The notes: generated by a model from the sequence alone, not told the origin. 34,555 nucleotides of DNA from Verrucomicrobiota bacterium (GCA_019242435.1 JAFAVN010000187.1:1-34555), one strand, 5' to 3'. Positions 7,957 through 25,218 are shown, numbered from the stretch's first letter. Numbers and translations are program-made.

Positions 7957-8500
7957 GCAGGGCTTCCTCAAGACGAATTTGGGTCTACTCGAAGCGGGTC
8001 GGCGTCTCCCTCCTTACGACCCAGCAGACCGGCCTTTATTCCCAGCGCCAGTATTTTTCAGAAAAACCAGAAAAGCTGCCTGCGTTTGCCAAATCGTGAG
8101 AAATGAAGCCTCGAGTTCTCGTCGCATCCGGGGATAAGTTCTCAAGCAACCAAGTCTGTATGAAGTGTTTATGTGTTTGGGCTTCGAAACGCTTCTGAGT
8201 AAGTTGAATGACCGAGAACGAATGCCTGCCGGGTACGCTTCCAACTTAGCGGATGCGAGCGAAGGAATGTCTGAAAGCATCGCGAATCGGTGGATCGACC
8301 GACAGCGTCCGTTTTGGCGAACTGAATCGAGTAATGAACTGGCGCCACCTCCTCCGGGTACGAGCTTGACCGGTCCAGCGGCCATCATCAGTTTTGGCCC
8401 ACCCAGTCCGCGATTAACCGGTTGTCTGTTGCTCCCGCCGATTTATCGTGGGACTCCTGAAAAGGAGCTCGCCCTCCGGGGCCAACGCTGTTTACACCTG

Positions 8501-9019
8501 ATGTCAAAGGCCCCGCACTTCGAAAAGATTTTTCTGCCTCATCTGGACGCGGCGTACAACCTTGCGCACTGGATCCTGGGCGATGAACGGGAAGCGGAAG
8601 ACGTAGTGCAGGAAGCTTATGCTCGGGCCTGGGAAGATTTTCCTCTTTATCGTGGTGAAAACCCACGAGTCTGGTTACTCACGATGGTTCGAGCTATTGC
8701 GTCGAGTCTGCCTGGAAAACACGTTTCTAAAGACGGGGTGTTGTTAACGGATGAACAAAAGGATTCTACTGAAAAGAGAACCGCCATCCCGCAGCTTGAA
8801 GATTGCAAACAGCGATTCTGGCAGGCGCTGAATTCACTGACCAGCGACTTGCGGGAAGTACTCGTTCTCTCCCACCTCGAAGGGTGGTCTTACCAAGCTA
8901 TCGCCACGGCTCTCGGCGTTTCTTTAGAAACAGTGATGTCTCGTCTCAGTCTCGCCCGTTATCTTTTGATAAACAAGCTCATGCCAGGCACAGATCGGGA
9001 TATCGAAGATGAATTGTAA
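8501..9019 (+). CDS. ECF-type RNA polymerase sigma-70 family factor
   Basis: Region 2 reads HLDAAYNLAHWILGDEREAEDVVQEAYARAW and region 4 reads LREVLVLSHLEGWSYQAIATALGVSLETVMSRL. The ATG at 8501 gives the usual 172-aa size, whereas the ORF-track start at 8165 adds 112 non-sigma-like residues. Confidence 0.85.
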   Translation: MSKAPHFEKIFLPHLDAAYNLAHWILGDEREAEDVVQEAYARAWEDFPLYRGENPRVWLLTMVRAIASSLPGKHVSKDGVLLTDEQKDSTEKRTAIPQLEDCKQRFWQALNSLTSDLREVLVLSHLEGWSYQAIATALGVSLETVMSRLSLARYLLINKLMPGTDRDIEDEL

Positions 9020-9755
9020 AGTCGGGCGACAGTTTCTAGATGCCTATCTCGACGGCGAGCTTGAGATCGAAAAGCGTCTCGAGCTGGAACAGCACTTAAA
9101 TGAGTGCCCCGACTGCCAGAAACTGTTAGAACAGCAACAGAAATTCCGCGTTTTCTTCAATGCAAATGCGCCCTTTTACACGGCTCCAGATGACCTAAGG
9201 GCGCGAGTCCGGACTACGCTGGAAGCTCAGGTTCAAAAGCGAAAAATAATTCTACTGTTCCGTCAGCCTTGGCTCTATGCAGCGGCGCTATTGGTTATAA
9301 GCCTCTGGCTGGCATGGCCGCTTCTGTTCCCTGGCCGAGATAGATATTTGGTTTACGATGCTGCGCTAGATCATTCTCGAGCCAAGTTGCTGGGTCGCCT
9401 CTATGACGTTAATTCAGCCGATCCAGATGTAGTAAAGGATTGGCTAACGGCTAAGTTAGGTTTTACTCCTCCGGTTGTACGGCCCTCTGACCCGCAGTTT
9501 CAGATGCAAGGCGGCCGCGTCGGTGTCGTCCGGGACCGCAAGGTAGCAGCAGTGGTTTATAAAAAAAACCAGGATTTAATTAGCTTGTTCGTTTGGCCCG
9601 CAGGCAATAAGCCGCTGCCGGAGAAGGATTGGTCAGTCAGTGGATATCAGGCCTGCACCTGGAATGCCGCCAATTCCAATTTCGTGGCCATTTCTACATT
9701 AAGCGATCATGACCTGGACGTGTTTATTGATCAGATTAGAGATCAGCTGAAGTAG
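9009..9755 (+). CDS. Zinc-binding (ZAS, zf-HC2) transmembrane anti-sigma factor
   Basis: It overlaps the sigma gene by 11 nt. It has Cys3 followed 25 residues later by HLNECPDC (the H-x3-C-x2-C motif), a single TM helix WLYAAALLVISLWLAWPLLF, and an extracytoplasmic C-terminal domain. Confidence 0.85.
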   Translation: MNCKVGRQFLDAYLDGELEIEKRLELEQHLNECPDCQKLLEQQQKFRVFFNANAPFYTAPDDLRARVRTTLEAQVQKRKIILLFRQPWLYAAALLVISLWLAWPLLFPGRDRYLVYDAALDHSRAKLLGRLYDVNSADPDVVKDWLTAKLGFTPPVVRPSDPQFQMQGGRVGVVRDRKVAAVVYKKNQDLISLFVWPAGNKPLPEKDWSVSGYQACTWNAANSNFVAISTLSDHDLDVFIDQIRDQLK

Positions 9756-10417: not shown

Positions 10418-10496
10418 TGCCGAGTTAGGGTATTGTCTTCGACGTTGGCACGGACTACTCGGCTTGCTTACGTTGTTCCCGCAGGATTCACAAACT

Positions 10497-12008
10497 ATGA
10501 GACAGAGCGAAGAGAACCGCATAACGCGCCGGCAATTCTTGCTGGCTAGTGCTTTGGCTGGAGGCAGCGTAATTGTACCCACATCGACGACGGCGCAGAA
10601 CTCGATGCCGATGGCCATGCCGACAACCACTCCAGCGCCGCCGGTTCAAGCCGGACCAGCGAACGTGAGCTTGCGCATCGCCACGGGTCTTCTCGAGCTT
10701 GCCCCCGATCACATAGTCTCGACGACGCTCTATAATGGCCAGTTCCCCGGCCCGCCGTTGCGTTTCAAGGAAGGGGTGCCGATTACGGTTGACGTGTTCA
10801 ACGATACGGATACGCCGGAGCTTGTGCACTGGCACGGCCAGATCATCCCAAGCGACGTTGACGGCGCAGCCGAAGAAGGCACGCCCTATGTGCCGGCGCA
10901 CGGCATGCGACGCATAACCCTCACACCGAAGCCGGCCGGCTTTCGGTTCTACCACACGCATGTCGTGGCCGGGGGCGATCTCAATCGCGGCACGTACACG
11001 GGCCAGGTTGGCCCGGTTTACATCGAGCCCAAGAACGATGCAGGCGCTTACGACCGAGAAATTTTTCTCACGCTCAAGGAATTCGAGCCGACCTTTAGCC
11101 TGGGAGGCGATATGGCGATGGATTTTCTTGCCGGAGCTCCGATACCCGAGCTGCAACAGATCGGCAGGAAATCCGATATCGCCGCAGAGCAAAAGATCAA
11201 GGGCTACGAGGTCGGCTATGACCTCTTCAGCATCAACGGCAAGATCCTGGGTCAAGGCGAGCCGCTCAAGGTCCGGCTGGGTGAACGCGTTCTTTTTCAC
11301 GTGCTCAACGCTAGCGCGACTGAAATTCGCAGCCTGGCCCTGCCCGGCCATCGCTTCCATGTGGTTTCGCTCGATGGCAACCTTGTGCCCAATCCGGCGG
11401 ATGTGCCGGTCCTGTGGATCGGCACTGCCGAGCGCATCTCGGCGATTGTCGAGATGAACCACCCGGGGGTGTGGGTCTTGGGCGACCTCTCCGATGACGA
11501 TCGTGGGCACGGCATGGGTATCGTTGTCGAGTACGCTGGGCGCAGCGGCAAGCCACAATGGATCAAGCCTAAGCCTTACCGTTGGGACTACACCCTGTTC
11601 GCCAGACCCGGAGCAACTGCCCCAATACCAGATGAGGCAATCGAAATGCTCATCGTCAAGCACAACGGAGCGCTGCACGGGTTTAACGAGTGGACCCTTA
11701 ACGGCCAGGCATTCTCGATGGAAACAATGACCCCGAAGCTAACCGTGCACCAGGGCAAACGCTACCGGCTCAAATTTCGCAATGCGAGCGACGACGTGCA
11801 TCCGTTACATCTGCACCGCCATAGTTTCGAGCTGGTGCGCGTCGGCGGCAAGTCGACCGCTGGGGTCATTAAGGACGTTGTGATGGTCGGTGGATTTCAG
11901 GAGGTCGAGTTCGATTTCGTCGCAGACAATCCAGGTCTGACGCTCTTCCACTGCCACCAGCAGCTGCACATGGACTTCGGCTTCATGCAACTGATTGAAT
12001 ATGTTTGA
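10497..12008 (+). CDS. Tat-exported three-domain multicopper oxidase
   Basis: It has the twin-arginine signal ITRRQFLLASALAGG and all four copper motifs: HWHG, YHTHV, HPLHLHRH and HCHQQLHMDFGFM. The ATG at 10497 is preferred over the TTG at 10464. Confidence 0.9.
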   Translation: MRQSEENRITRRQFLLASALAGGSVIVPTSTTAQNSMPMAMPTTTPAPPVQAGPANVSLRIATGLLELAPDHIVSTTLYNGQFPGPPLRFKEGVPITVDVFNDTDTPELVHWHGQIIPSDVDGAAEEGTPYVPAHGMRRITLTPKPAGFRFYHTHVVAGGDLNRGTYTGQVGPVYIEPKNDAGAYDREIFLTLKEFEPTFSLGGDMAMDFLAGAPIPELQQIGRKSDIAAEQKIKGYEVGYDLFSINGKILGQGEPLKVRLGERVLFHVLNASATEIRSLALPGHRFHVVSLDGNLVPNPADVPVLWIGTAERISAIVEMNHPGVWVLGDLSDDDRGHGMGIVVEYAGRSGKPQWIKPKPYRWDYTLFARPGATAPIPDEAIEMLIVKHNGALHGFNEWTLNGQAFSMETMTPKLTVHQGKRYRLKFRNASDDVHPLHLHRHSFELVRVGGKSTAGVIKDVVMVGGFQEVEFDFVADNPGLTLFHCHQQLHMDFGFMQLIEYV

Positions 12009-12106
12009 GCATCCTCGTATCGTTCTCGAAGGCAGTGCTGGGCGGGCAGGACACTAGGCTCTTTTTGTAAAGAGCGTTACAAGTCCTGGCAATCACAGCC
12101 CTCGGG

Positions 12107-13336
12107 ATGGACATGACTCCTTCTACAAATGGCGCCGCGATAACGCAGGGTTTTGCGCGGGGGAATTACCTTGAGATTTTCTTGGTGTTCTTGCGACTTG
12201 GATTGACATCTTTCGGCGGTCCAATCGCGCATCTGGGTTACTTTCGGCAGGAATTCGTGGACCGGAGAAAGTGGCTGACTGAAGAGATCTTCGCCGATCT
12301 CGTCGCACTCTGTAATTTCTTGCCCGGTCCAACCAGCAGCCAGGTTTCCTATTCGATTGGGATGACACGCGGCGGCATTCCCGGCGCCATCTGTGCCTGG
12401 GGAGCGTTTACCCTTCCATCGGCGATTATCATGTTGTTCGCCGCCTATAGCATTCACTGGTTCAGTGGAGCTCAAGGAGCTAGCTGGCTTCACGGTTTGA
12501 AAATTGTCGCTGTGGCCGTTGTAGCTCAAGCAGTCTGGTCAATGGCAACAAGGCTTTGTACCGATCGCACTCGAATCTCTTTCGCCTTTGTGGCAGCCAT
12601 GATTATATTATTAACTAACAACTCTTGGATTCAGGTGCTTACAATTGCACTTGGCGCATTGGCCGGCTGGAAATTGATTCGGGTTAGCGCGCCCTCGGAG
12701 AAACCAGAACTGTTCGCCCGGCTGCCGAACTGGATTGGATCCACCACTGCGCTTGCGATATTTGCTTTTTGCCTTCTGATCATCCCTTTTTTGGCTGCTG
12801 GCAAGCGCGACGGCTGGCTTGCCCTTTTTGACATTTTCTATCGTACTGGATCGCTGGTTTTCGGAGGTGGACATGTTGTTCTACCTCTTTTGCAAGCTGA
12901 GGTAGTTCCAAGGGGCTGGGTGGACAATAATACGTTCTTAGCCGGGTACGGAATTGCTCAGGCGTTGCCCGGCCCGCTCTTCTCGTTTGCGGCATATCTG
13001 GGAGCTGCAAAGAATGGTTCGCCTAGCGGTTGGCTCGCCGGGTTCTGGTGTATATTTGCAATCTTACTGGCTCCCATGCTTCTAGTTACCGGGCTGCTAC
13101 CACTGTGGAGTCGGCTCCGAGCGTCCAGAGCAACTCAGTCGTTGTTGGCCGGCGCTAATGCCACTGTGGTCGGAATTTTATTAGCCGCGCTTTATCAACC
13201 TATTTGGACAAGCACGATCGATTCAGCGAAGAGTTTAGCGCTCGCACTGGTCCTGTTTGTTGGTTTGCAAATCTGGAAAGTAGCGCCATGGATCCTGGTT
13301 ATCGTCGGAGCTATATCCGGCGGCATCTTTTTGTGA
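12107..13336 (+). CDS. chrA: Chromate ion transporter (CHR family, two-domain long form)
   Basis: 409-aa polytopic ORF with the hallmark LRLGLTSFGGPIAHLGYFRQEFVDRRKWL...FLPGPTSSQ, plus a second-half repeat SLVFGGGHVVLPLL...ALPGPLFSFAAYLG. Confidence 0.9.
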   Translation: MDMTPSTNGAAITQGFARGNYLEIFLVFLRLGLTSFGGPIAHLGYFRQEFVDRRKWLTEEIFADLVALCNFLPGPTSSQVSYSIGMTRGGIPGAICAWGAFTLPSAIIMLFAAYSIHWFSGAQGASWLHGLKIVAVAVVAQAVWSMATRLCTDRTRISFAFVAAMIILLTNNSWIQVLTIALGALAGWKLIRVSAPSEKPELFARLPNWIGSTTALAIFAFCLLIIPFLAAGKRDGWLALFDIFYRTGSLVFGGGHVVLPLLQAEVVPRGWVDNNTFLAGYGIAQALPGPLFSFAAYLGAAKNGSPSGWLAGFWCIFAILLAPMLLVTGLLPLWSRLRASRATQSLLAGANATVVGILLAALYQPIWTSTIDSAKSLALALVLFVGLQIWKVAPWILVIVGAISGGIFL

Positions 13337-13339
13337 CCG

Positions 13340-13675
13340 TCATTCGATCAGCTCATGAAAGAGCTCGCGTAGCTTCCGCTTAGCGGCAGCGAGCGCTTTT
13401 TTACCTTTCTTTGTGGCTGAATACTCGCGCCAAGCGCGACGCCCCTCGCGTCTGACCTCTACCGAAAGGTAGCCCCGCTTTTGCAGACCATGTAATAAGG
13501 GATAGATAGTACCCGGGCTCATTTCATAGCCGTGCCGCCGAAGTTCTTCAATCATCCAGAAACCCACCAAAGGCTCCTGTGCGGCATGGTGGAGGATATG
13601 CAGGCGAATAAAACCACTCAGAAACTCGCGGTGATCGGACTCCAGCATTTTTCGATGTAATACTTTCGGAGCCAT
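13340..13675 (-). CDS. PadR family transcriptional regulator
   Basis: It has the winged-helix signature LHILHHAAQEPLVGFWMIEELRRHGYEMSPGTIYPLLHGLQKRGYL. The ORF is open to a TTG at 13711, and ATG starts occur at 13675 and 13648. It is convergent with chrA, with the two stops 3 nt apart. Confidence 0.85.
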   Translation of the reverse strand: MAPKVLHRKMLESDHREFLSGFIRLHILHHAAQEPLVGFWMIEELRRHGYEMSPGTIYPLLHGLQKRGYLSVEVRREGRRAWREYSATKKGKKALAAAKRKLRELFHELIE

Positions 13676-14275
13676 GACAATTTGCAACCTTGGCGCACAA
13701 GCGCTCCGCAAGGCAAGTCTAATTGGCTGGATTCACTATCGCGATTCGTTACCGTGGAATCAGGCCTGGAGCCGCCGCCGAATGGCCATCGAGATGCGAA
13801 TGAAATCAAGCGAGTGGTTTATAGGCAGCACTGGCAGGAGGTGGCTTTACGATAGATCGGTTCTGGCTTTGATTGTCTTTTCTGTCCCTTGTCTCAGACT
13901 CCGCAATCGCTGGCTGTCGATCGCCAAGGTCTTGGATTTCAGAAGACCGAGGTAATCCGGACCGATGATAACCCTGAGATAAAGGAAGACTCATTATTAG
14001 GGCAATATACGATTCGCACCCATTGGTCTGAGAGCGGGACCCAACTCATTTCAGATATTTCATTTCGAACAAAGGACTCGCGAGATGGTCAAATGACGAT
14101 CGTTCGCGACTGGCTGATGGCGGAAAGACTCTGGTCTGGAGAAGCACGCTGAAAATAGCCGGTCAGTCAAGAAGTTGGGCGGTCCGCCGTGTCTGGCGTA
14201 AGCGCGGATCTCGATGAAAAGATCCGCCGATTGCCAGTTGGAACCGGCACTTAAGCTGGTAGCTTCTCGAAGACC

Positions 14276-14773
14276 TCAGTTACTGCTGCCCGGCTCCGCC
14301 AACCCTTTCATGCTTGTTTCTAATCGCAACCGGTCCAGCTGATCAAAGGAGAAATTGTTAAAGAGCAGTAGACGGTGTCGAATAGCTGCGGCGACCCGAT
14401 AATAACTGTCCTCTACTTCCTTCGCAGAGCCTTGCGTTTTTCTTGGATCTCTAAACGGCCAATTAGCCAAAATTGGTTTACCGGGAAACGCCTGACTAGT
14501 CGTCTTGCCTTCTTCGGACAGGGTCACAATGAAATCGAGCTGCCGGTCTTCAAATTCACGCCAAGACTTGCTCCGGGCATCCGACGTGTCTATTTGAAAC
14601 TTGTCCTGCAAGATTTTCAGCGTGACTGGGGAGACTTGTTGTAAGGGAGTGACTCCGGCGCTGAATACTTCGAACCTTTTGGCACCGAGCTCTCTCATGA
14701 AGTACTCAGCAAAAATGCTTCTGCCAGCATTCCATCTGCACAGAAACAGAATCGAGAACTTTGCTTCTGCCAT
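14276..14773 (-). CDS. LMW-PTP / ArsC-fold phosphatase (arsenate-reductase-like, single catalytic Cys)
   Basis: 165 aa with the P-loop LFLCRWNAGRS (C-x5-R-S), FSAGV, and an RDP acid loop. It aligns by eye along Bacillus-type ArsC, but the TLCGDAADKCP segment reads TLSEEGKTTSQAFP, with no resolving cysteines. Confidence 0.8.
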   Translation of the reverse strand: MAEAKFSILFLCRWNAGRSIFAEYFMRELGAKRFEVFSAGVTPLQQVSPVTLKILQDKFQIDTSDARSKSWREFEDRQLDFIVTLSEEGKTTSQAFPGKPILANWPFRDPRKTQGSAKEVEDSYYRVAAAIRHRLLLFNNFSFDQLDRLRLETSMKGLAEPGSSN

Positions 14774-14894
14774 ATGTACAAGACGAGGTTGAGATTGAGC
14801 GGCGCGGATTCAGAAGAAGCCGGGTAGTGTTACGCATTCTGCGCGACTTTAGCCGCACATCAGCTACACCCCCCCGAATCTATATTAGTCCTCT

Positions 14895-14930
14895 TTATTG
14901 ACAAGGGGTATGCTCCAAATTTAGTCAAGA
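14895..14930 (+). promoter_or_regulatory. Promoter-like module upstream of the DUF2064-rSAM genes (copy B of the repeated 36-nt motif)
   Basis: TTGACA at 14898-14903, a 16-nt spacer, then TTTAGT at 14920-14925. The spacing and flanks match copy A. Confidence 0.55.
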
Positions 14931-15056
14931 ATACCAGGCTGGCGCCTGCCCCTACAACAGGTCGAACGCATTATCGTTGTCCTCCCACGCCAAACAATGA
15001 AACCTGAAATACTGATTCCGGGCTGCTGGAATTCTGAGGTCGCGGACCGATGTGCG

Positions 15057-15782
15057 ATGGGAATTATGATCAAGACTCCTCGAAACGGCTTCTCGAAAAC
15101 CCGACTTTGCCCTCCCCTTTCAGGGGAAGAAGCGGCCGGTATCAGCCGTTGCTTTCTAAAAGATACCGGCGCCACGCTCAAAGCCCTCAGCCACCAAGAT
15201 CCTTTCGCAGTCGGTGTTGCGGTTTACACGCCGCTTGGATCCGAGGGTGAACTTGAAGAACTTTTGCCCGCCGGATTCAAAATGATCGCCCAGCGTGACA
15301 AAGATTTCGGGCCTCGCCTGGTAGGAGCCATCCAGGACCTGTTCTCCATCGGATTTGGGGCGGTTTGTCTGATAAGCTCGGATAGCCCGACTCTTCCGTT
15401 TTCTCACTTACAAGAATTGGCAACTTTTCTCAAAGAACCCAAGGACCGAGTCGTTATCGGGCCAAGCTCGGATGGCGGCTATTACGCTATAGGAATGCGC
15501 CATCCGCACCCGAGACTTTTTGAGGAAATTTCCTGGAATACGGATCGGGTTTACGTCGAGACCCTCGAAAGAGCAAAAGAGATCGACCTGCCGGCAATTG
15601 CCTTGCCGGCCTGGTACGATGTGGATGACCGGTTTTCATTACATCGGCTCCTATCCGAGCTATTCCCTGAGCGGACGCACCAGCCGATGCCTAAAGGAGC
15701 GCCCGCCGCAACCACCAAGGGCTTCCTGCGCCAAATGTTCGTACAAGAAGGCACCGGCCGAATCTGGCCGGATGGGCGCTAA
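15057..15782 (+). CDS. DUF2064 / TIGR04282-type (CofC-like) transferase
   Basis: It carries the signature MIKTPRNGFSKTRLCPPLSGEEAA, then LISSDSPTLP, DGGYYAIG, ISWNTDRVY and WYDVDD. An alternative upstream ATG lies at 14997. Confidence 0.8.
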   Translation: MGIMIKTPRNGFSKTRLCPPLSGEEAAGISRCFLKDTGATLKALSHQDPFAVGVAVYTPLGSEGELEELLPAGFKMIAQRDKDFGPRLVGAIQDLFSIGFGAVCLISSDSPTLPFSHLQELATFLKEPKDRVVIGPSSDGGYYAIGMRHPHPRLFEEISWNTDRVYVETLERAKEIDLPAIALPAWYDVDDRFSLHRLLSELFPERTHQPMPKGAPAATTKGFLRQMFVQEGTGRIWPDGR

Positions 15783-15961
15783 TGATAGGTGTCAAGAGGT
15801 TGGCTCGCACAATCCGTCGCTCTGCTGGCGGCTGTTTTACCGGCTTGAAGCAGATGATAACACTGCCGTGAAATCGACATTTGATTTCGACGGAAGCGAC
15901 CGCAGTGTAAGCTCGAAGAGAGCGCCACCTGCAAGGCTAGCAGGCGGGGAAGCGACACCAT

Positions 15962-16993
15962 ATGCGAGCCAAGGCAAACATCGAACTCAACGCCGGTCTT
16001 AAATCTTTTGCGAACGGTTTGCTGCCCGAGTTAATAACCACGCTGCGCCGATGTGCTCCAGGTGACCTCCTCGCCGTCGTTGGCAACGAAGCTGCTATCG
16101 GCACCGACCTTGAAACCTGGTGCCGTTTCACCCGCAATAGCTTGATCGATAAGACCGTCGAAGCCGGTCGCACTCGGTGGCTGATTCGGTGCGCAGAGGC
16201 TCCCGCTGACGACATCATTGATCGCCCCATCGGCTCGCGCCTTTGGCTTTACACAAATTTCGATTGTAACCTCCATTGTGACTACTGCTGCGTGCGCTCC
16301 TCGCCCAGGGCGCCACGGCGGGAACTCGGAATCGCTCGCGTACGGCGCATCGCTAGCGAAGCAGCCGACCTCAATGTGAATGAAATATTTGTGACCGGCG
16401 GCGAACCATTTTTGCTCCGCGACATCGGCGACATCCTGGCTGCCTGCACCGCTACCGCTCCGACTACTGTGCTCACTAACGGCGCGCTAGTCGCACAACG
16501 CCTCGAAATGCTGCGGTCGCTGGCCAGCGACCGCTTGACGTTACAGATCAGCTTGGACAGTCCGACATCCGAACGGCACGACCGTCATCGGGGAAAGGGT
16601 ACTTGGGAACGCGCGGTGAAAGGGATTGAACAGGCTCGGGCGGGGGGCTTCCGCGTGCGATTGGCAGCAACCGTGTCCACTGATGATGAAGCCGAGGAGT
16701 TCCGCCGGTTTTTGGACGCTCGCCGTATCAGTGAAGAGGACCGGGTCGTTCGCCGAATCGTGCTTCGAGGCTTTGCCATCAAGGGCATCGCACTGGCACG
16801 CGCCGATCTAATTCCAGAGGTTACGATCACCGCGGACGGTGTCTACTGGCACCCGGTGGGAGCTGATGACCCGGACCTTCTTGTGACTGCCGAGATCTTT
16901 CCTTTAGCAGAAGCCTTCGCTGCGGTGCGTCTCGCGTTCGAACACGAAAACGAGCATCGCCGCAAGTTGGCGACGATTTTTAACTGCGCCTGA
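15962..16993 (+). CDS. Radical SAM enzyme with N-terminal Cys-less TusA/SirA-like domain
   Basis: 343 aa. Residues 1-85 align by eye to TusA. The cluster motif CNLHCDYC sits at aa 102-109 (nt 16265-16288), and the SAM motif is VTGGEPFLL. Only two Cys follow the cluster, so there is no SPASM, twitch or Cys-rich domain. Confidence 0.85.
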   Translation: MRAKANIELNAGLKSFANGLLPELITTLRRCAPGDLLAVVGNEAAIGTDLETWCRFTRNSLIDKTVEAGRTRWLIRCAEAPADDIIDRPIGSRLWLYTNFDCNLHCDYCCVRSSPRAPRRELGIARVRRIASEAADLNVNEIFVTGGEPFLLRDIGDILAACTATAPTTVLTNGALVAQRLEMLRSLASDRLTLQISLDSPTSERHDRHRGKGTWERAVKGIEQARAGGFRVRLAATVSTDDEAEEFRRFLDARRISEEDRVVRRIVLRGFAIKGIALARADLIPEVTITADGVYWHPVGADDPDLLVTAEIFPLAEAFAAVRLAFEHENEHRRKLATIFNCA

Positions 16994-17087
16994 CTCTGCA
17001 GACGCGACAGGCTACGAGTGGATTTCCCCCTGAAAAGGGAGGAAATTGCGAATAACTTCGTTCTGTCGGGGCTCAAACGCTGGCCTC

Positions 17088-17924
17088 TCATCGATTAAAA
17101 AAACCCTGGTTAGAAGCGGCCTGTCGTAATGTGCCATACCCGTCGAGATGCGGGGATTCCCACCTGCGCAGGCCTTCGGCATCGAGCACGACGCGATGGC
17201 TGGGATTGTCGTAACTCATTCCGGAAAGGGCTGCCGCGAACGCTTTATCCAAGGCTGGGTCGAGATCCGGGCGCGCGGTAAACATGCAATGATTGAACGG
17301 AGGCGACGTCCAGATCTCGGTCAGCGCGCCCTCCGGCACCAAATGCTGAGTCTGCACGGTCTTCCAGAATGGACTGCCGATTGCGCCGGCATCAGCTCGG
17401 CCGTCGAGCACTGCCCGGACGACCTCGACCTCACTGGTACCCGTATCGCCATGTTTCCCGATATCGCTATTGAAGCGTACCGTTAGATAGTCTCTTCCCT
17501 CGAGCAACCCTTCCCGCTCCAGGAAATGAACCGGCAGAATCGCGGCATGTCCGCTGTCGCGGCTGCCGAGGGCTAAGGTTCGATTTTTGAGATCGGCCAG
17601 GGCAGCAATCGACCCGCCGCTGACCGCAACGATTTTGGTTGTCCAACCGATGTCAGTATCCCGCATGGCGATTGGCCGGCAATGTTCGCTGCTCCAGGCC
17701 TCGGCTTGCAGGTACGCGAGGTTGGTATTCCATGCGATGTCAATACGAGGAGTGGGCTCACCTGACTGTGCAAGGAGCGCCCTTACTTGCATTTCGTAAC
17801 TTTGAAACAGGACGACCTCAACTGGCAAGTGTGCCTCTTCCAGAAAGTAGCGCCGCATTCCTTCCCAGATTGTGACCACTTTCGGATCGTATGCGACGGC
17901 GCCTACCCAGATAATTCGGCTCAT
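17088..17924 (-). CDS. PhnD/SsuA-like type II periplasmic-binding-protein-fold protein without signal peptide (cytoplasmic)
   Basis: 278 aa starting MSRIIWVGAVAYDP, with no signal or lipobox. PhnD-like segments include IAALADLKNRTLALGSRDSGHAAILPVHFL and EVEVVRAVLDGRADAGAIG. Confidence 0.75.
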   Translation of the reverse strand: MSRIIWVGAVAYDPKVVTIWEGMRRYFLEEAHLPVEVVLFQSYEMQVRALLAQSGEPTPRIDIAWNTNLAYLQAEAWSSEHCRPIAMRDTDIGWTTKIVAVSGGSIAALADLKNRTLALGSRDSGHAAILPVHFLEREGLLEGRDYLTVRFNSDIGKHGDTGTSEVEVVRAVLDGRADAGAIGSPFWKTVQTQHLVPEGALTEIWTSPPFNHCMFTARPDLDPALDKAFAAALSGMSYDNPSHRVVLDAEGLRRWESPHLDGYGTLRQAASNQGFFNR

Positions 17925-18063
17925 AATTGGTTAATCATTGAATGGATCGTTTCTCGCTAGGAACTTTGAATCGTCCTGGTACTCTTCGAGCAGCAGGGAT
18001 AATGATGCGCCTCGGAGCCGAGGACAGGAGGACGAGCACGAAGCGCCTGCTGAGGACATATGC

Positions 18064-19209
18064 CTAAAAGAGAGGGATACCGAGTATGGCTTTCGCGATG
18101 AACTCGCGGAGGACGTCTCCCGTTGGTGCCATCACTGCCCCAGCGTGAGCATCACGGAACAGCCGCTCGATATTCAGGTGTTTAGAGAAGGCAGAACCTC
18201 CGCACACCCGCATTGCCGTTGAGGTAACGCCGATGGCGATATCACCCGCCGCCGCCTTAGTCTCGAGCACGCGTAACAACGTCGTGTCCCTAGGCTGCTC
18301 GAGATGTTCGACTAAGTCGTCGATACGTGCCGAAAGGCCATCGGTCTCGATCTGCATGGTGGCGAGCAGGGCGCGTAAAGTCGGTAAGCCTTCTCCGAGG
18401 GTTTGCCCGAGATGCTCGAAACGAGCGCTCTTGAGATGGGCCGCGGTTGCAGCTACGGCAGCGCGACAGAGACCGAGCGCAACCGCCGCTGTGCCCAGAT
18501 TAAACAGCGGTAACACTACGTTCAACATCGTCGGGAAACCTTTGGCATCCTCGGTTAACTGGAACTCCGGTGAAAGCTCGCATCCAACCAGCACCATCGG
18601 AGCGGAGGCGTTCGCTCGTAATCCCAGACCATCCCATGCGCCCTCTACTGATAGCCCTGGCAAACCCGCCGGAACCAGATAGAGAGTGGAATCGGTTGGA
18701 CCTGTTCCTTCGGGCGCAAGCGTCGAGACTACATAACTCTGTGCACAGCCGGCGCTCGTCACCCACGACTTCTTTGCTGTGATCTCGACGCCCGCGCTGT
18801 TGCGTCGCGCGCGCGAGACTGGCGCCCAAAAATGACTGCGTGAGCCGGCCTCACTAAACGCCAGCGTGGATAGATGCTCTCCAGCAGCAATTGTCTTGAG
18901 GATGTCCGCAAAGCCGTCGCCCTTCCGGGCAGCCGCGATTGTCGCGGTCGCACAGATATGCATCAGATACACCATCGCCACTGAGGCATCCGCCTCAGCA
19001 AGGATTGCCGTAACCGCCGCAAATGTTCGTGGGCCTAGACCCGTGCCGCCGAGATCCGCAGGTAACATTAGCCCCAGAAGCTCTGCGCGCCCCAAAGCCT
19101 TCACGGCCTCTGTTGAGAAACGACCCTCTCTATCATTCTGCCGAGCAGCTGGAATCAGTACACTATTGCTTATCTCTTTTGCCTGCGATAACGCTGCCTC
19201 GTGATTCAT
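18064..19209 (-). CDS. Acyl-CoA dehydrogenase-fold flavoprotein (probable oxygenase/oxidase-type rather than classical ACAD)
   Basis: 381 aa with three-domain ACAD-like organisation (N-terminal helical domain, KKSWVTSA beta domain, C-terminal helical domain). A GGAGG sequence lies 5 nt upstream of the ATG. The position of the MCAD catalytic Glu (YEGT) reads MAPT. Confidence 0.85.
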   Translation of the reverse strand: MNHEAALSQAKEISNSVLIPAARQNDREGRFSTEAVKALGRAELLGLMLPADLGGTGLGPRTFAAVTAILAEADASVAMVYLMHICATATIAAARKGDGFADILKTIAAGEHLSTLAFSEAGSRSHFWAPVSRARRNSAGVEITAKKSWVTSAGCAQSYVVSTLAPEGTGPTDSTLYLVPAGLPGLSVEGAWDGLGLRANASAPMVLVGCELSPEFQLTEDAKGFPTMLNVVLPLFNLGTAAVALGLCRAAVAATAAHLKSARFEHLGQTLGEGLPTLRALLATMQIETDGLSARIDDLVEHLEQPRDTTLLRVLETKAAAGDIAIGVTSTAMRVCGGSAFSKHLNIERLFRDAHAGAVMAPTGDVLREFIAKAILGIPLF

Positions 19210-19466
19210 GATGCCTCCGTCGGAGCCACTGGGTTGTGAGTTTTTTCATCGAATTCTTAAGCAAGATCGCGATGGGAGTCTGGCAAATTGGCGAGAAATG
19301 GCTTCGATCCCGCATTGTATTAAAAGAATCTTATCAAGCCACACCAAAATTAGGGCAACCATTCCGTCATTTGTATTTCCATAAGAGCGCCAAAATTCGC
19401 CCGATTTCGTTAGGAAATCTTGTGTCAGAAATCGTGATGGCGCCTTTTTGCCGAGCTGTCTCGACC

Positions 19467-19505
19467 TAAAAGCGTTCAGCCGCGACCCGGCCGGCCGCGG
19501 CTGAA
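19467..19505 (-). terminator. Rho-independent-type terminator after the ferritin-like gene
   Basis: 10-bp stem TTCAGCCGCG (19475-19484) / CGCGGCTGAA (19496-19505). On the minus strand it is followed by CGC and then TTTT. Confidence 0.65.
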
Positions 19506-19539
19506 TCTCCTTCTCCAGAAAATGGTTAAGTTGCTTGTG

Positions 19540-20784
19540 CTAAGAGCGCTGGGCGTTATCCGCCGCCGTTGCTAACTGTAAAGACAGATCAAAGAAACCT
19601 TTGCTTTGTCCGTCGAAGAGTCCGTCGGCGATGAAAGCTTGCAGGGTAGCGACGGCGCCGCCTAGAGCGGTGGAAGTAGGACGTATTATCGAGCAGGGAG
19701 GCAGGGCTTCGTTTCCAATGAAGTCGCATGGCTCCGGCTGAATTTTGTTAGTTTGGGTGAGCTCGAGCTTCAGGTTCAGCCGAGCTAATGTAGCCGGATC
19801 ATTCAGATCAGGAAATGTCAACCCGGTTTCAGGGTCGACGACCCCCGCCAATGGTTGGGCAACGGCATTGCCCGCCTTGTCGTGCCAGAGTGAAAAGTGA
19901 TCAATCTCTACTCCGCCGATACTGAGCAAAATCCGTAAAACTTCTTCGCTAGTTGCCTTGAACGCCAGGGTAGGATAAAGACTCGTGCCACCCTGCTCGA
20001 TAAAAGCAAAGTGAAAGCCCGCGGTATTAGCAATCGCTTGTACGCGCTGAGCCGGCGATCCCTCCGGAATTGGCGGCAGCGGCACCACGATATCCGGCGG
20101 AGTGTCAGTGTCGTTCAATGGAATTGCCGGTTCATTCAGGATATTAAAAGGACCTTTGAAGTTCGCGTCCAGGTCCGGGTTCTCCCCGCTCCTATAGCGA
20201 GTGTACCAACTCAGATCTACATTAAGTCTCAGCAAGTTTGTCAGCCGTTTACCGATCTTTTTTTTATCCACTCCTGTCGCCGTGCTGCCCGGCAAAGTTC
20301 GAAAATAGTCAAGGTCGACTGGCTCAGCCCCGTGGGTCCTTAAATACGCGTTCAGGAAAGCTGCATGGCTCAATTCATCATCATTATTATCCGTGATGTA
20401 CTGCGGCATGTCGCCGTCGAGATTTTGTAGCGCTAATTTATAAGCCGGGTTTCCCACATTGGGGGGACCGTCGTTCGGCGCCGTCGCTCCGCCCAACTCA
20501 TTGTATTGAGTCCAGAGATCACTTTCCACAATCTCGGCCCAGGCTGCGAACCTCAAGAGATCCGCATCGCCTTTACTAAGTTTTCCCGATGAGCTTGTCC
20601 CCTGGCCTTTTACCTTATTCAGCAATACTGTACTCGCTGGTAACAACGTGGCTCCAATAATGCCCAGCCCTCTAAGAAAAGAGCGCCGAGGCACCGCGCT
20701 CCGCAATTGCGAATTAGTTAATTCAGCGCCGGGCATCGGCGGCTGCGTCTGAGCGGAGCCGGTGTAGGGTAGTTTTTCTTTCAT
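19540..20784 (-). CDS. Tat-exported ferritin-like domain protein
   Basis: 414 aa with the twin-arginine signal PRRSFLRGLGIIGATLL. DADLLRFAAWAEIVESDLW and a second-half IDHFSLWHD resemble the duplicated ferritin-like (Ferritin_2-type) fold. Confidence 0.65.
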   Translation of the reverse strand: MKEKLPYTGSAQTQPPMPGAELTNSQLRSAVPRRSFLRGLGIIGATLLPASTVLLNKVKGQGTSSSGKLSKGDADLLRFAAWAEIVESDLWTQYNELGGATAPNDGPPNVGNPAYKLALQNLDGDMPQYITDNNDDELSHAAFLNAYLRTHGAEPVDLDYFRTLPGSTATGVDKKKIGKRLTNLLRLNVDLSWYTRYRSGENPDLDANFKGPFNILNEPAIPLNDTDTPPDIVVPLPPIPEGSPAQRVQAIANTAGFHFAFIEQGGTSLYPTLAFKATSEEVLRILLSIGGVEIDHFSLWHDKAGNAVAQPLAGVVDPETGLTFPDLNDPATLARLNLKLELTQTNKIQPEPCDFIGNEALPPCSIIRPTSTALGGAVATLQAFIADGLFDGQSKGFFDLSLQLATAADNAQRS

Positions 20785-21192: not shown

Positions 21193-22596
21193 GTGGATCC
21201 GGTGGTCAGCGGCAAAGCGAAGCAAAACATCGCCACCGTCTCGGTGATCGCGAGTGGAAGCATTGCCGCCTTGAAACTCCTGGTAGGGGCCCTAACCGGA
21301 AGCCTGGGGCTGCTGGCCGAGGGCGCTCATTCTCTGTTCGATCTCGTTTCCACCTTAATCACGTTCCTGGCGGTCAGAATCGCGACGGTGCCGCCCGATG
21401 CTAATCATCCTTTTGGCCATGAGCGAGCCGAAAACCTTGGGGCCTTGGCCGGAATGGCACTCCTGGCCGGAGCCGCCATCTACATCCTTTACCACGCGAC
21501 CAAGAGGATCTTTTTTCATCCGGCCGCGCCAGTAGTGAATGCCTGGTCGTTTGGCGTGTTGGCGGTCGCTTTGGTTGTGGATTTATATCGCGCCCGAGCG
21601 CTGCGCTGCGCTTCCAAGAAGTATTCCAGCCAAGCGCTGGCTGCCGATGCTGAGCACTTCAAAAACGACATTCTCGGAACCTTAGCCGTGCTTGCCGGGC
21701 TAACGGTAGTCCAACTCTCTCATTTCATCTCCTTACCGGACTGGCTGGTGTTACGGGCGGACGCGTTGGCGGCAGCGGTTGTAGCATGCATCGCCTTACG
21801 ATCAGCTTGGCGTATGGGCACCGAAGCCATTCGGGCCCTGATGGGAGATGTTCCGGTAGAACTGACCGAGAGACTCAAGCGAACGGTGGAGAGTCTGGAG
21901 GGCGTCGTGAAAGGTTCAACCGAATTGCGGACCCACTTCGTGGGCAACCGCCCGTATGTCGATGTAACGCTGGGTACCCCGCGCGGCGGATCACTGGAAT
22001 CAGCCCACCATCTCACAGAAGCCGTGGAGAAGGCTATTCAGGATCAACTCGCAGGAGCGCAGGCAACCGTTCACGTGGAACCCAAAGCGATTCCGCACGA
22101 GGGCCCGGCCGCCAGTCTGCGCGCGATAGCCGATCAACTCCGGCTACGCGTGCATAACGTTAACGTTTATACGATCGACAGCAGAATCCGCATCGATGTG
22201 GACCTGGAACTGCCGAACACTCTTACCTTAGCACAAGCTCACCGGTATTCCGAGAACCTGGAGCGCGCTCTCTGTCGTGAGTTGTCGGATCCGGTCGCGG
22301 TCGCTATTCACCTGGAGCCACGTAGCGACAAGCCACGACCAGCAACCATCCGCCCATCATCGACCCAAGAAATTCGCGATCTGCTTTCCAAGCTGCCCCA
22401 CGGAACAAATACTCGGGTCCGGGACGTACTCGAAACGGACGAGGGTCTGGTAGTGACCTTAGAAAGAGAATTCCCGGGAGACATGTCGCTGCGGCAAGTC
22501 CACGAAGCGATGACGGACCTTGAGCGTAGTTTAAAGGTTGCGCTTCCAAAAATCATCAGGGTGCACGTTGACCCCGAGCTGCTGCCGCCCGCCTGA
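21193..22596 (+). CDS. Cation diffusion facilitator (CDF) metal efflux transporter with triplicated C-terminal cytoplasmic domain
   Basis: GTG start. Six TM helices carry HSLFD (TM2) and HFKNDILG (TM5) site-A motifs, plus HPFGHERAE. Three tandem segments of about 70 aa follow, ending ATVHVEP, VAIHLEP and IRVHVDP. Confidence 0.9.
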   Translation: MDPVVSGKAKQNIATVSVIASGSIAALKLLVGALTGSLGLLAEGAHSLFDLVSTLITFLAVRIATVPPDANHPFGHERAENLGALAGMALLAGAAIYILYHATKRIFFHPAAPVVNAWSFGVLAVALVVDLYRARALRCASKKYSSQALAADAEHFKNDILGTLAVLAGLTVVQLSHFISLPDWLVLRADALAAAVVACIALRSAWRMGTEAIRALMGDVPVELTERLKRTVESLEGVVKGSTELRTHFVGNRPYVDVTLGTPRGGSLESAHHLTEAVEKAIQDQLAGAQATVHVEPKAIPHEGPAASLRAIADQLRLRVHNVNVYTIDSRIRIDVDLELPNTLTLAQAHRYSENLERALCRELSDPVAVAIHLEPRSDKPRPATIRPSSTQEIRDLLSKLPHGTNTRVRDVLETDEGLVVTLEREFPGDMSLRQVHEAMTDLERSLKVALPKIIRVHVDPELLPPA

Positions 22597-22597
22597 A

Positions 22598-22622
22598 GCT
22601 CGCGGATGACATATCCGGCGAG
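22598..22622. terminator. Imperfect hairpin between the convergent CDF and MFS genes
   Basis: GCTCGCGGAT - loop - ATCCGGCGAG, with one bulge and no clear U-tract. Confidence 0.3.
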
Positions 22623-22623
22623 T

Positions 22624-23871
22624 CTAGCGAGCCGGCTCTCGGCGACCTACCACCAACCGGGTCCCTACCAAAAGAGCGCAAGCGGCAAATAGAAACATGG
22701 CGAGGCCCATGGCGACAGCGGTACCATGATAGAACATCGCTACCAGTTCGCTGGAGATAGCACCACCTAACATCCGGATACTGCCGAAGGCCGATGATGC
22801 TACCCCTGCGATACTCGGCAGCGGTTCCAATGTACCATGCACGGCGTTTGGAGTGATTAACCCCATCGACAACGTATTCAGAATCAGCAGGGGCATAATG
22901 GAAACAGCGTTCAACCGACCAAGCAAGGCACCCCCTAGCAGAAGCCCGGTTGCTGAAAAAGAAATGACGAGGCCGCTGATGACAAGCCGAGTAGTAGAAA
23001 CGCCTTTGGCGCCGAATCGGCCGCTGGCTAGCGCTCCGATCGCGATGGCACAGGCGTTGACGGCGAAAAGAATGCCAAAAATGCGGGGACCAACTCTGAA
23101 AACGTCGATAAACACAAATGCTGATCCTGAGACATAAGCGAAGAGTGCTCCGAAACTAAGCCCGCCGATCAGAAGGTATATTACGCAGGTTTTGTGGGAG
23201 AAAACCCGCCAGTAATTACTTAACAAATGCCGCGGCTTCAGCGCCTGTGGATTTCGAGTCGGAATCGATTCTTCGAGGCCCAACAGCAGCACTGACACTA
23301 CGATCGCACCGGCAATAGCCAGCCAGAAAAACACGGAGCGCCAACCTTGCAGGGCAGCGATTAAGCCACCTAGAGTCGGTGCAATAATAGGGGCGATCGT
23401 GCCTACCACGCTGATATACGAAAGACGAGCTCTGGCAGCAGATCCAGAGAATCGGTCACGCACGATGGCGAGAGCAATCACGGACCCCGCTGCCGCACCG
23501 ATTCCTTGAACAAACCGCCAAGTCGCCAGCACCGCCAAAGAAGGCGCCAGCGCGCACCCCACAGATGCGACTGAGAAGAGCAAACAACCAAACACCAGCG
23601 CGGGACGACGGCCGAAACGATCGGATACCGGGCCAAAGGCTAGTTGGCCGGCTGCGAAGCCGGCCAGGAATAGGCTTAAAATGGATACGGCAGCACCGGC
23701 ATCGACTCCCAACGAGCTGGCAATCACCGGCAAGGATGCCAGGCAGGAATCGATGGAAAGGGACGGTAGGGTTACGCTTGCCGCCAGCAGTATAATGAAG
23801 GCTTTGGATTCAGGACTGATTTTGAGGGGGCGTGAATGGGTAATCTCTTTGCGAGTCGTCAATAGTTCCAT
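22624..23871 (-). CDS. MFS drug efflux transporter, Bcr/CflA-like
   Basis: 415 aa with 12 predicted TM helices and the MFS motif A GPVSDRFGRRP. Confidence 0.9.
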   Translation of the reverse strand: MELLTTRKEITHSRPLKISPESKAFIILLAASVTLPSLSIDSCLASLPVIASSLGVDAGAAVSILSLFLAGFAAGQLAFGPVSDRFGRRPALVFGCLLFSVASVGCALAPSLAVLATWRFVQGIGAAAGSVIALAIVRDRFSGSAARARLSYISVVGTIAPIIAPTLGGLIAALQGWRSVFFWLAIAGAIVVSVLLLGLEESIPTRNPQALKPRHLLSNYWRVFSHKTCVIYLLIGGLSFGALFAYVSGSAFVFIDVFRVGPRIFGILFAVNACAIAIGALASGRFGAKGVSTTRLVISGLVISFSATGLLLGGALLGRLNAVSIMPLLILNTLSMGLITPNAVHGTLEPLPSIAGVASSAFGSIRMLGGAISSELVAMFYHGTAVAMGLAMFLFAACALLVGTRLVVGRREPAR

Positions 23872-23973
23872 CTTTTACAGTCTGCGTATCGCACCGATAT
23901 CGAGAGTTTGAGCACTTCGGCGCTGCTAATCTGTGAGAAATGCAGCCTCATCCCAGAATATGAGACTTGCCGG

Positions 23974-25191: not shown

Positions 25192-25218
25192 AAATTGCGA
25201 TTAGTTCCCATTGGATGT

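Follow-up and report, generated by a model that had tools for sequence, protein, structure and literature searches.

A reduced copy of a widespread gene cluster combining DUF2064 and Rv1681-type radical SAM proteins in a Verrucomicrobiota contig

A stretch of Verrucomicrobiota DNA of 34,555 nucleotides (GCA_019242435.1 JAFAVN010000187.1:1-34555), hereafter called the window, carries four genes that are a reduced version of a widespread and functionally uncharacterised cluster. The stretch makes up an entire 34.5-kb contig of a metagenome-assembled genome (MAG). The four genes encode a DUF2064 protein, a radical S-adenosylmethionine (rSAM) protein of the Rv1681 family, a PhnD-fold protein that resembles solute-binding proteins (SBP-like) and a flavoprotein with the acyl-CoA dehydrogenase fold (ACAD-like). 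Together they form a conserved unit that is found in Verrucomicrobiota, Acidobacteriota, Proteobacteria and a distant branch of the rSAM family. The rSAM, SBP-like and ACAD-like genes are referred to below as the triad.

Conservation of the unit and its reduced form in the window

There are 80 loci in our survey that encode rSAM relatives 68-81% identical to the protein of the window, and they come from Verrucomicrobiota, Acidobacteriota and the Alpha-, Beta-, Gamma- and Deltaproteobacteria. Open reading frames (ORFs) were clustered across 81 sequences, which are these loci plus the window, and 46 of the loci had full 8-kb flanks. An SBP-like gene is present in 75 of the 81 clustered sequences, at a median distance of 49 bp from the rSAM gene, and an ACAD-like gene is present in 68, at a median distance of 30 bp from the SBP-like gene. 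The pair occurs in 42 of the 46 fully flanked loci, and those loci that lack a partner are mostly truncated contigs. The usual arrangement is rSAM> <SBP <ACAD, where arrowheads give the direction of each gene.

Likewise, 42 of the 46 fully flanked loci have a DUF2064 gene no more than 8 kb away from the rSAM gene. An earlier note on this DNA, made from the sequence alone, had left it as a question whether the association of these two genes is conserved, and the count answers this in the affirmative. More than 10 gene orders are represented across three phyla, with DUF2064 placed upstream on the same strand, divergently, or downstream of the ACAD-like gene. Direct adjacency of the two genes takes three forms, namely a divergent pair (L007 and L016), an overlapping tandem (L085 and L088) and a tandem with a spacer (the window and L081). 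The two loci with overlapping reading frames (by 34 nt in L085 and by 7 nt in L088) belong to the distant branch, with rSAM identities of 54-60%. The first has the order epimerase>rSAM>DUF2064>GT2, with SBP-like and ACAD-like genes close by, and the second has the order epimerase>rSAM>DUF2064> <SBP <ACAD. Because the linkage is kept despite such rearrangements, and because of the gene overlap in these two loci, comparative gene order supports a functional link between DUF2064 and the Rv1681-type rSAM protein. Directly upstream of the epimerase-rSAM-DUF2064 operon, both loci also carry genes for multihaem c-type cytochromes (L085:4998-8877; L088:1-2618).

Two further partners are glycosyltransferases. 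One is a GT-C protein, a membrane protein of about 460 amino acids that passes the Pfam GT87 model and has MptA_B/GT87 matches; its gene is co-directional with, and directly follows, DUF2064 in 54 of 61 cases. The other is a GT2 protein found in 52 loci, whose best matches are AglJ, PpgS and dolichyl-phosphate hexose transferase (Dpm1-type). Scores of the relatives' GT2 proteins against TIGR04283, the GT2 family of the arsenosugar cassette, are 30-46 bits, with a cutoff of 182. The earlier note had supposed that the GT2 partner is replaced in this system, a view that does not hold, as GT2 and GT-C occur in most relatives and are missing merely in the lineage of the window.

Lineage-specific additions include an NDP-sugar dehydratase/epimerase, a PNP-family nucleosidase, a class-I methyltransferase, DoxX/DoxD proteins (about 25 loci) and a second rSAM protein with a SPASM domain. 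There is also a protein of about 257 amino acids with no Pfam or NCBIfam match in 24 loci, which are mostly acidobacterial (for example L017:7081-7854 and L060:7251-7988), and in most of these its gene is located directly upstream of the rSAM gene. The same position in Verrucomicrobia and in the distant branch is occupied by a GT2, DoxX, methyltransferase or epimerase gene.

The closest relatives of the window have the order DUF2064>GT-C>epimerase>GT2>(DoxX>methyltransferase>)rSAM, wherein 3.5-5.4 kb separate DUF2064 from the rSAM gene, compared with 179 bp in the window. Nucleotide homology (blastn) to six of these loci (L003, L004, L006, L012, L042 and L082) ends at positions 15769-15775, at the DUF2064 stop, and restarts at 15961, at the rSAM start. 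No homologue of the GT-C, GT2, epimerase, DoxX or methyltransferase proteins was found by tblastn anywhere in the window. An identical junction is present in L081, an independent metagenome contig with 94% nucleotide identity. An assembly artefact at the junction is therefore rejected, and the compact arrangement is real because it is common to an independent sample. The lineage of the window has lost or relocated the genes that would form the lipid-carrier half of the cluster.

The coordinates of the cluster are collected in Table 1. The earlier note had flagged positions 14276-16993, and its three ORFs and their motifs are all present as described. However, the flagged interval stops short of the most constant partners of the rSAM gene, at 17088-19209, which were missed.

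Table 1. Features of the four-gene cluster and of the divergent neighbouring gene, numbered from the first nucleotide of the window
Feature	Position	Strand	Evidence
LMW-PTP/ArsC-like gene	14276-14773	-	ORF and Pfam LMWPc
DUF2064 gene	14997/15057-15782	+	ORF, PF09837 and TIGR04282
DUF2064-rSAM spacer, 179 bp	15783-15961	.	blastn junction against relatives
rSAM gene, 343 amino acids, Rv1681 family	15962-16993	+	NF049973
TusA-fold N-domain, amino acids 7-76, without catalytic Cys	15980-16189	+	HHalign, Foldseek
CX3CX2C motif and C110 (CNLHCDYCC)	16265-16291	+	81-sequence alignment
Penultimate Cys342, F-x-C-[A/G] motif, flexible tail	16985-16987	+	81-sequence alignment
Rv1680-like cytoplasmic SBP-fold (PhnD/PtxB-like) gene, convergent with rSAM gene	17088-17924	-	NF049985, PF12974
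Rv1679(FadE16)-like ACAD-fold flavoprotein gene, without canonical catalytic Glu	18064-19209	-	NF049984

Proteins of the unit

The rSAM protein exceeds the 380-bit cutoff of NF049973 ('Rv1681 family radical SAM protein') with a score of 451 bits, wherein residues 21-343 align to positions 2-326 of the 326-position model. The family counts at least 5,449 matching database proteins, and it is compact, with a mere handful of full-length representatives at 50% identity. The gene is labelled simply 'radical SAM protein' by the Prokaryotic Genome Annotation Pipeline (PGAP), and many family members are labelled 'TusA-related sulfurtransferase/radical SAM' by the Joint Genome Institute (JGI). Therefore, the architecture is not newly seen, since thousands of members are already catalogued.

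The rSAM motifs CNLHCDYC and GGEPFLL were both found, along with a PF04055 match of 84.5 bits. The match to ArsS (TIGR04167) reaches only 42.3 bits, with a cutoff of 300, and aligns just the core residues 94-231. Judged by this score, the protein is not ArsS. Two MoaA models also fail (TIGR02668 with 73.7 bits against 325, and a second model with 68.9 bits against 284). Whether the protein belongs to ArsS or to another characterised family had been posed as a test of the earlier proposal. ArsS fails, but there is a full-length match to NF049973, a family whose function is uncharacterised.

As the earlier note had stated, there is no match to a SPASM or twitch domain in profile searches, and the alignment of 81 close homologues contains neither a Cys-rich C-terminus nor a second Cys triad. 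Residues C102, C106 and C109 of the cluster-binding motif are invariant (81/81), as is GGEPF at residues 146-150. Four further cysteines, C54, C110, C162 and C342, are each present in at least 80 of the 81 homologues (C110 in 80, C342 in 81). Three of them follow the cluster motif (C110, C162 and C342), rather than the two counted earlier. Even distant full-length proteins of the family (P0122, P0133, P0139, P0160 and P0166) retain Cys342. The AlphaFold2 (AF2) model has a predicted local distance difference test (pLDDT) score of 82.9, falling below 50 for tail residues 338-343, and the tail that bears Cys342 is presumably mobile.

Foldseek searches with the whole rSAM protein return only generic rSAM cores (SkfB, SuiB, BlsE, MoaA, DesII, viperin and AbmM), which give no pointer to the substrate. 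The nearest solved relatives nevertheless include enzymes that act on nucleotides or nucleotide sugars. AbmM (8WM2) is the best sequence match in the PDB and ranks with BlsE (7VOB), DesII (8HZY), MoaA (1TV7) and viperin among the proteins closest to the core in sequence and structure. These neighbours are remote, with identities of 14-24% and template modelling (TM) scores of 0.41-0.54, and the protein of the window differs in having no auxiliary-cluster domain. A shared feature is the cluster context, which holds nucleotide-sugar enzymes.

The N-terminal domain of the rSAM protein has the fold of TusA, as had been proposed. The Pfam TusA match (PF01206) is weak, at 19.4 bits against a gathering threshold of 28.6. 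HHalign gives 95.4% probability (E 1.8e-8) for the domain profile against a manually entered sequence of E. coli TusA. When the isolated domain of 80 residues is modelled (pLDDT 87), its best PDB matches in Foldseek are E. coli TusA and YeeD/TsuB; the TM scores with E. coli TusA are 0.76-0.83 and the root-mean-square deviation is 2.1 A (3lvj_C 0.76/0.82). The domain shares with the TusA/YhhP family its beta-alpha-beta-alpha-beta-beta topology and the second conserved Cys, as C54 aligns to TusA Cys56. It differs in being fused to an rSAM enzyme and in the catalytic Cys of the CPxP motif. TusA Cys19 aligns to F16/A17, and none of the 81 close homologues has a Cys there. Because this position is Phe or Ala, the domain, as predicted from the alignment, cannot serve as a TusA-type persulfide carrier of sulfur or selenium, contrary to the role suggested earlier. 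The domain more probably serves for docking or binding. A Cys in the catalytic position of TusA (MDCGSGLL) is retained only by one distant subclade (P0133 and P0231), which lacks C54.

The two convergent partners both point to the families named after M. tuberculosis Rv1679-Rv1681. The SBP-like protein scores 304.5 bits against NF049985 (Rv1680 family; model positions 3-264 of 268), below the cutoff of 400, and its next best family reaches 79.5 bits. It also matches PF12974 (111.7 bits), has no predicted signal peptide, and has PtxB and PhnD as its nearest PDB sequences. We treat it as an Rv1680-family homologue that falls outside a narrow curated cutoff. In L083, whose rSAM protein (P0133) is an outlier with 43% identity, the rSAM gene is followed by genes for DoxD, a PhnD-type SBP and an ATP-binding cassette (ABC) ATPase. 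This arrangement hints that the Rv1680-like cytoplasmic protein is derived from a transporter component.

The ACAD-like protein scores 427.4 bits against NF049984 (Rv1679 family; model positions 14-371 of 371), again below the cutoff, which is 600, and the next best family reaches 103.6 bits. Where true acyl-CoA dehydrogenases (2DVL and 1JQI) have the Glu of YEGT, the alignment shows an Ala, which is part of an invariant 'MAPT' motif. Secondary matches are SfnB/DszC (SfnB 101 bits) and 3-sulfinopropanoyl-CoA desulfinase (100 bits), and there is also similarity to sugar N-oxygenases such as KijD3 (3m9v, E 2.6e-21), DnmZ and nitrososynthase. The protein therefore shares both its fold and the absence of the canonical Glu with ACAD-fold enzymes that are not dehydrogenases. 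In contrast to these enzymes, it stays under every curated cutoff, and true acyl-CoA dehydrogenases score slightly better in the PDB search.

In summary of the triad's resemblance to Rv1679-Rv1681, the rSAM protein passes its family cutoff and both neighbours prefer Rv1680 and Rv1679, respectively, by more than 200 bits over the full length. The three genes are adjacent in the window, and in M. tuberculosis their adjacency is implied by the consecutive Rv numbers. The differences are that two members lie below curated cutoffs, that the rSAM gene of the window is convergent with the other two, and that the soil-bacterial clusters are usually joined to DUF2064, GT-C and GT2. Each family has its own catalogue entry, and NCBIfam recognises the triad implicitly. 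No functional description was found in literature searches on Rv1679, Rv1680 and Rv1681, on DUF2064, TIGR04282 and TIGR04283, or on the combination of TusA with radical SAM, nor did we find a published account of what the triad does or of its conserved association with DUF2064, GT2 and GT-C. Published mentions of Rv1681/MoeX were confined to its use as a urine biomarker of tuberculosis.

The DUF2064 protein matches PF09837 (91.3 bits) and passes the 134-bit cutoff of TIGR04282 with 146.1 bits. The expected signature, KTRLCPPLSGEEAA / SSDSP / DGGYYAIG, was found in full, and the DSP and DGGYY motifs are conserved across 58 homologues. The protein is 72-74% identical to verrucomicrobial orthologues, and its nearest PDB sequence is 3CGX (E 4e-19). 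PGAP places the start at 14997, and the JGI start is equivalent to 15057. We infer that the protein is a CofC-like nucleotidyl- or glycosyl-transferase. TIGR04282 is a family that we take to have been defined by co-occurrence with ArsS (TIGR04167) and TIGR04283; neither of these partners was found in the window by profile searches, in agreement with the earlier note. The DUF2064 proteins of the window, L017 and L085 all pass the TIGR04282 cutoff, and each is partnered with an rSAM protein of the Rv1681 type that is not ArsS.

Candidate pathways

Our favoured reading, to which we assign a probability of roughly one half, is that the cluster tailors a nucleotide-activated, sugar-like unit, and that relatives with complete clusters pass the product to a polyprenyl-phosphate carrier for glycosylation of the cell envelope. 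The CofC-like DUF2064 protein would make or handle a nucleotide-linked sugar-like compound or phospho-compound, and the rSAM protein would tailor this compound by radical chemistry. For this purpose the latter would combine a core like those of MoaA, BlsE, AbmM and DesII with a TusA-fold docking domain and a mobile C-terminal Cys. Perhaps the ACAD-fold flavoprotein, which lacks the canonical catalytic Glu, joins in the tailoring, with the cytoplasmic PhnD-fold protein binding an anionic substrate, although both of these roles are guesses. In complete clusters, GT2 would load the product onto polyprenyl phosphate and GT-C would move it to an acceptor in the envelope.

This proposal draws on known polyprenyl-phosphate-sugar systems (Ppm1 with the GT87 proteins MptA/MptB/PimE; ArnC/ArnT; GtrB/GtrC). 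The relatives likewise pair a Dpm1/GtrB-type GT2 with a GT-C protein, and they sometimes add an enzyme for NDP-sugar dehydration or epimerisation. In contrast to these systems, the glycosyltransferases are coupled here to rSAM, DUF2064, PhnD-fold and ACAD-fold proteins, and the window has neither GT2 nor GT-C.

Several observations weigh against the favoured reading. The window is without the two glycosyltransferases on which the lipid-carrier step depends. The NDP-sugar 4,6-dehydratase/epimerase (best matches LegB, RmlB and GalE) is encoded in 8 loci only, and a PNP-family nucleosidase (PNP_UDP_1), whose gene lies between the ACAD-like and DUF2064 genes, in only 15 of 88 loci. The rSAM core resembles the peptide-modifying enzymes SkfB, SuiB, EpeE and anSME equally well, such that the fold leaves the class of substrate unfixed. 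Four of the 46 fully flanked loci have the triad but no DUF2064, and the same holds for a myxococcal genome; in L086 there is no DUF2064 gene within 10 kb. Across phyla the triad proteins are 68-86% identical and the DUF2064 proteins 31-49%, so perhaps these are two modules of different history. The gap in conservation between triad and DUF2064 would mean that the triad either is under exceptionally strong constraint or has recently spread by horizontal transfer.

More tentatively, the rSAM, PhnD-fold, ACAD-fold, DUF2064, GT2 and GT87-type GT-C proteins could constitute one undescribed pathway that is abundant in soil bacteria and yields a sugar or ribosyl unit, tailored by radical chemistry (for example deoxy-, thio- or heteroatom-substituted), that is attached to the envelope through polyprenyl phosphate. 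Under this wider proposal, DUF2064 and GT2 would be a general module for glycosylation of rSAM products that is also used in arsenosugar synthesis by ArsS, and the 'arsenosugar' annotation of many soil TIGR04282 proteins would be wrong. We hold this possible, with somewhat more doubt than confidence.

Two other explanations deserve consideration. One is a parallel to arsenosugar synthesis, which refines the idea of the earlier note that the substrate is an arsenic, selenium or sulfur species. The rSAM protein would place a 5'-deoxyadenosyl group on an arsenic, selenium, sulfur or phosphorus substrate that derives from an oxyanion and that the PhnD-fold protein presents. Adenine would next be removed by a PNP-type nucleosidase, after which DUF2064 and GT2 would glycosylate the ribosyl derivative. 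Adenosylation of arsenic by ArsS is an established precedent (Cheng et al. 2021, as cited in PMC12159101). Like the cassette of ArsS, TIGR04282 and TIGR04283, the present cluster has an rSAM protein, a DUF2064 protein that passes TIGR04282 (as noted for the window, L017 and L085) and, in relatives, a GT2 partner. The 15 nucleosidase genes would also be accommodated, and the SBP-like protein belongs to the superfamily of phosphite, phosphonate and 'selenate' binding proteins. Hints of sulfur are the TusA fold, DoxX/DoxD, a rhodanese in L086, the SfnB/DszC-like ACAD fold and AbmM as the top PDB match.

Each of these likenesses stops short of a specific family, and every cutoff for arsenic- or selenium-specific families failed. 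The rSAM protein is of a different family from ArsS, carries a TusA-fold N-domain and lacks the Cys-rich or selenocysteine-containing C-terminal domain, in keeping with its ArsS score of 42 bits. The GT2 proteins are Dpm1/AglJ-like and remain far below TIGR04283, and the SBP-like protein reaches only 80-93 bits against TIGR04553, with a cutoff of 250. The PhnD-fold, ACAD-fold and GT-C proteins are additional to the arsenosugar cassette. There are no arsenic genes such as ArsM, ArsR or Acr3, and the methyltransferase of some clusters is just generically ArsM-like (38 bits). The sulfur hint from the TusA fold is weakened by the missing catalytic Cys, and neither the ArsC-like gene (0/80 loci) nor the metal-resistance neighbours of the window are conserved beside the cluster. 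We therefore consider adenosylation of a heteroatom unlikely; a substrate containing arsenic, selenium or sulfur stays speculation, with no link to arsenic seen. The description of the system as an uncharacterised variant of a pathway with rSAM, TIGR04282 and GT2 proteins nevertheless seems fair, as no functional study was found.

The other explanation is that two independent modules share one genomic island, wherein the Rv1679-81 triad makes or scavenges a small molecule, as is implied for M. tuberculosis, and DUF2064, GT-C and GT2 carry out a separate envelope glycosylation. The unequal divergence described above speaks for such modules, as do the loci that lack DUF2064, including L086. There are also 9 architectures with the triad only ('R>S<A<'), many of them on short contigs, and the gene for the distant protein P0133 sits with DoxD and a real set of ABC transporter genes. 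However, independent modules would not readily account for a linkage that survives in three phyla through over 10 gene orders, for direct adjacency of rSAM and DUF2064 in three configurations, or for a lineage that kept DUF2064 intact beside the triad while losing GT-C and GT2. This explanation, too, appears improbable to us.

A molybdenum-cofactor paralogue with the rSAM protein as a MoaA-like GTP cyclase is very improbable: the legacy name MoeX of Rv1681 suggests such a role, and MoaA is among the better secondary profile matches (TIGR02668) and the top structural neighbours, but the scores (74 against 325 and 69 against 284) are far under the MoaA cutoffs, the protein lacks the C-terminal auxiliary-cluster Cys triad and the Gly-Gly tail, no moaB, moaC, moaD or moaE gene is close by, and the conserved partners are glycosyltransferases and PhnD-fold and ACAD-fold proteins.

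Neighbouring genes and implications for annotation

The gene divergent from DUF2064 encodes a protein that resembles low-molecular-weight protein tyrosine phosphatases (LMW-PTP) and ArsC, and PGAP labels it 'arsenate reductase ArsC'. It matches Pfam LMWPc (PF01451) with 43.9 bits and fails the ArsC equivalogs TIGR02691 (52.4 bits, cutoff 174.3) and TIGR02689 (48.7 bits, cutoff 157.6). The P-loop CRWNAGRS is present without a resolving Cys pair, as originally described; Cys12 is the sole Cys of the protein, and the positions of the resolving Cys residues in ArsC read 'VTLSEEGKTTSQAFPG'. The protein may be a phosphatase or an enzyme that depends on an external thiol. The spacer that separates it from DUF2064, given earlier as 223-283 bp, measures 223 bp with the DUF2064 start at 14997 and 283 bp with that at 15057. 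None of the 80 loci has an ArsC-like homologue less than 8 kb away from the rSAM gene, and an identical protein stands beside DUF2064 only in a second, near-identical MAG. The gene is consequently rejected as a partner of the cluster, in which the earlier note had included it, and is regarded as a chance neighbour.

Three stretches of the window (250-1683, 10464-13711 and 21193-28434) are rich in genes for metal handling and efflux. They encode a MerA/RclA-like FAD oxidoreductase, a multicopper oxidase (MCO), a ChrA chromate transporter, PadR, a cation diffusion facilitator (CDF) transporter, a Bcr/CflA pump of the major facilitator superfamily, and the adaptor and permease of a resistance-nodulation-division system. 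In L082, MerT/MerR and a heavy-metal P-type ATPase are encoded close to the cluster. A link between the cluster and metal resistance was rejected, as such genes are found beside it in few loci or none (MCO in 2 of 80, PadR in 1 of 80, ChrA and CDF in 0 of 80).

Next to the ACAD-like gene, at 19540-20784(-), is a gene for a ferritin-like protein (PF13668) of 414 amino acids with an N-terminus of the twin-arginine type (RRSFLRGLG); this neighbourship is not conserved elsewhere. Farther away are an extracytoplasmic function (ECF) sigma factor gene that overlaps the gene of a ZAS-type (RsrA-like) anti-sigma factor, at 8165-9755(+), and a gene for a protein of the TIGR03118 (PEP-CTERM-associated) family, at 6811-7971(-). 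A scan of positions 13300-19700 for promoters and terminators gave counts no higher than those of shuffled controls.

There are consequences for how such genes are named. The contexts of the window, L017 and L085 suggest that DUF2064/TIGR04282 proteins are not specific to arsenic. PGAP names the DUF2064 protein of the window 'arsenosugar biosynthesis glycosyltransferase', and TIGR04282 has been read as a soil marker of 'stress tolerance: arsenic' or as the 'arsenosugar biosynthesis gene fbiD' (PMC11237643, mSystems 2024; PMC8801600). The TIGR04282 proteins scanned here sit with rSAM proteins other than ArsS, and therefore the 'arsenosugar' label is no evidence of arsenic metabolism. The automatic names 'arsenosugar' and 'arsenate reductase ArsC', together with ecological inferences based on them (PMC11237643), may mislead for soil bacteria.

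The orphan families named after M. tuberculosis Rv1679-Rv1681 gain a concrete context from these clusters, with conserved partner enzymes and cultured carriers of the full cluster in Bradyrhizobium (B. valentinum LmjM3, B. retamae Ro19 and B. murdochi WSM1741). The window provides a natural reduced version, with DUF2064 and the triad but no lipid-carrier half, that could help to separate the soluble chemistry of the pathway from its export steps.

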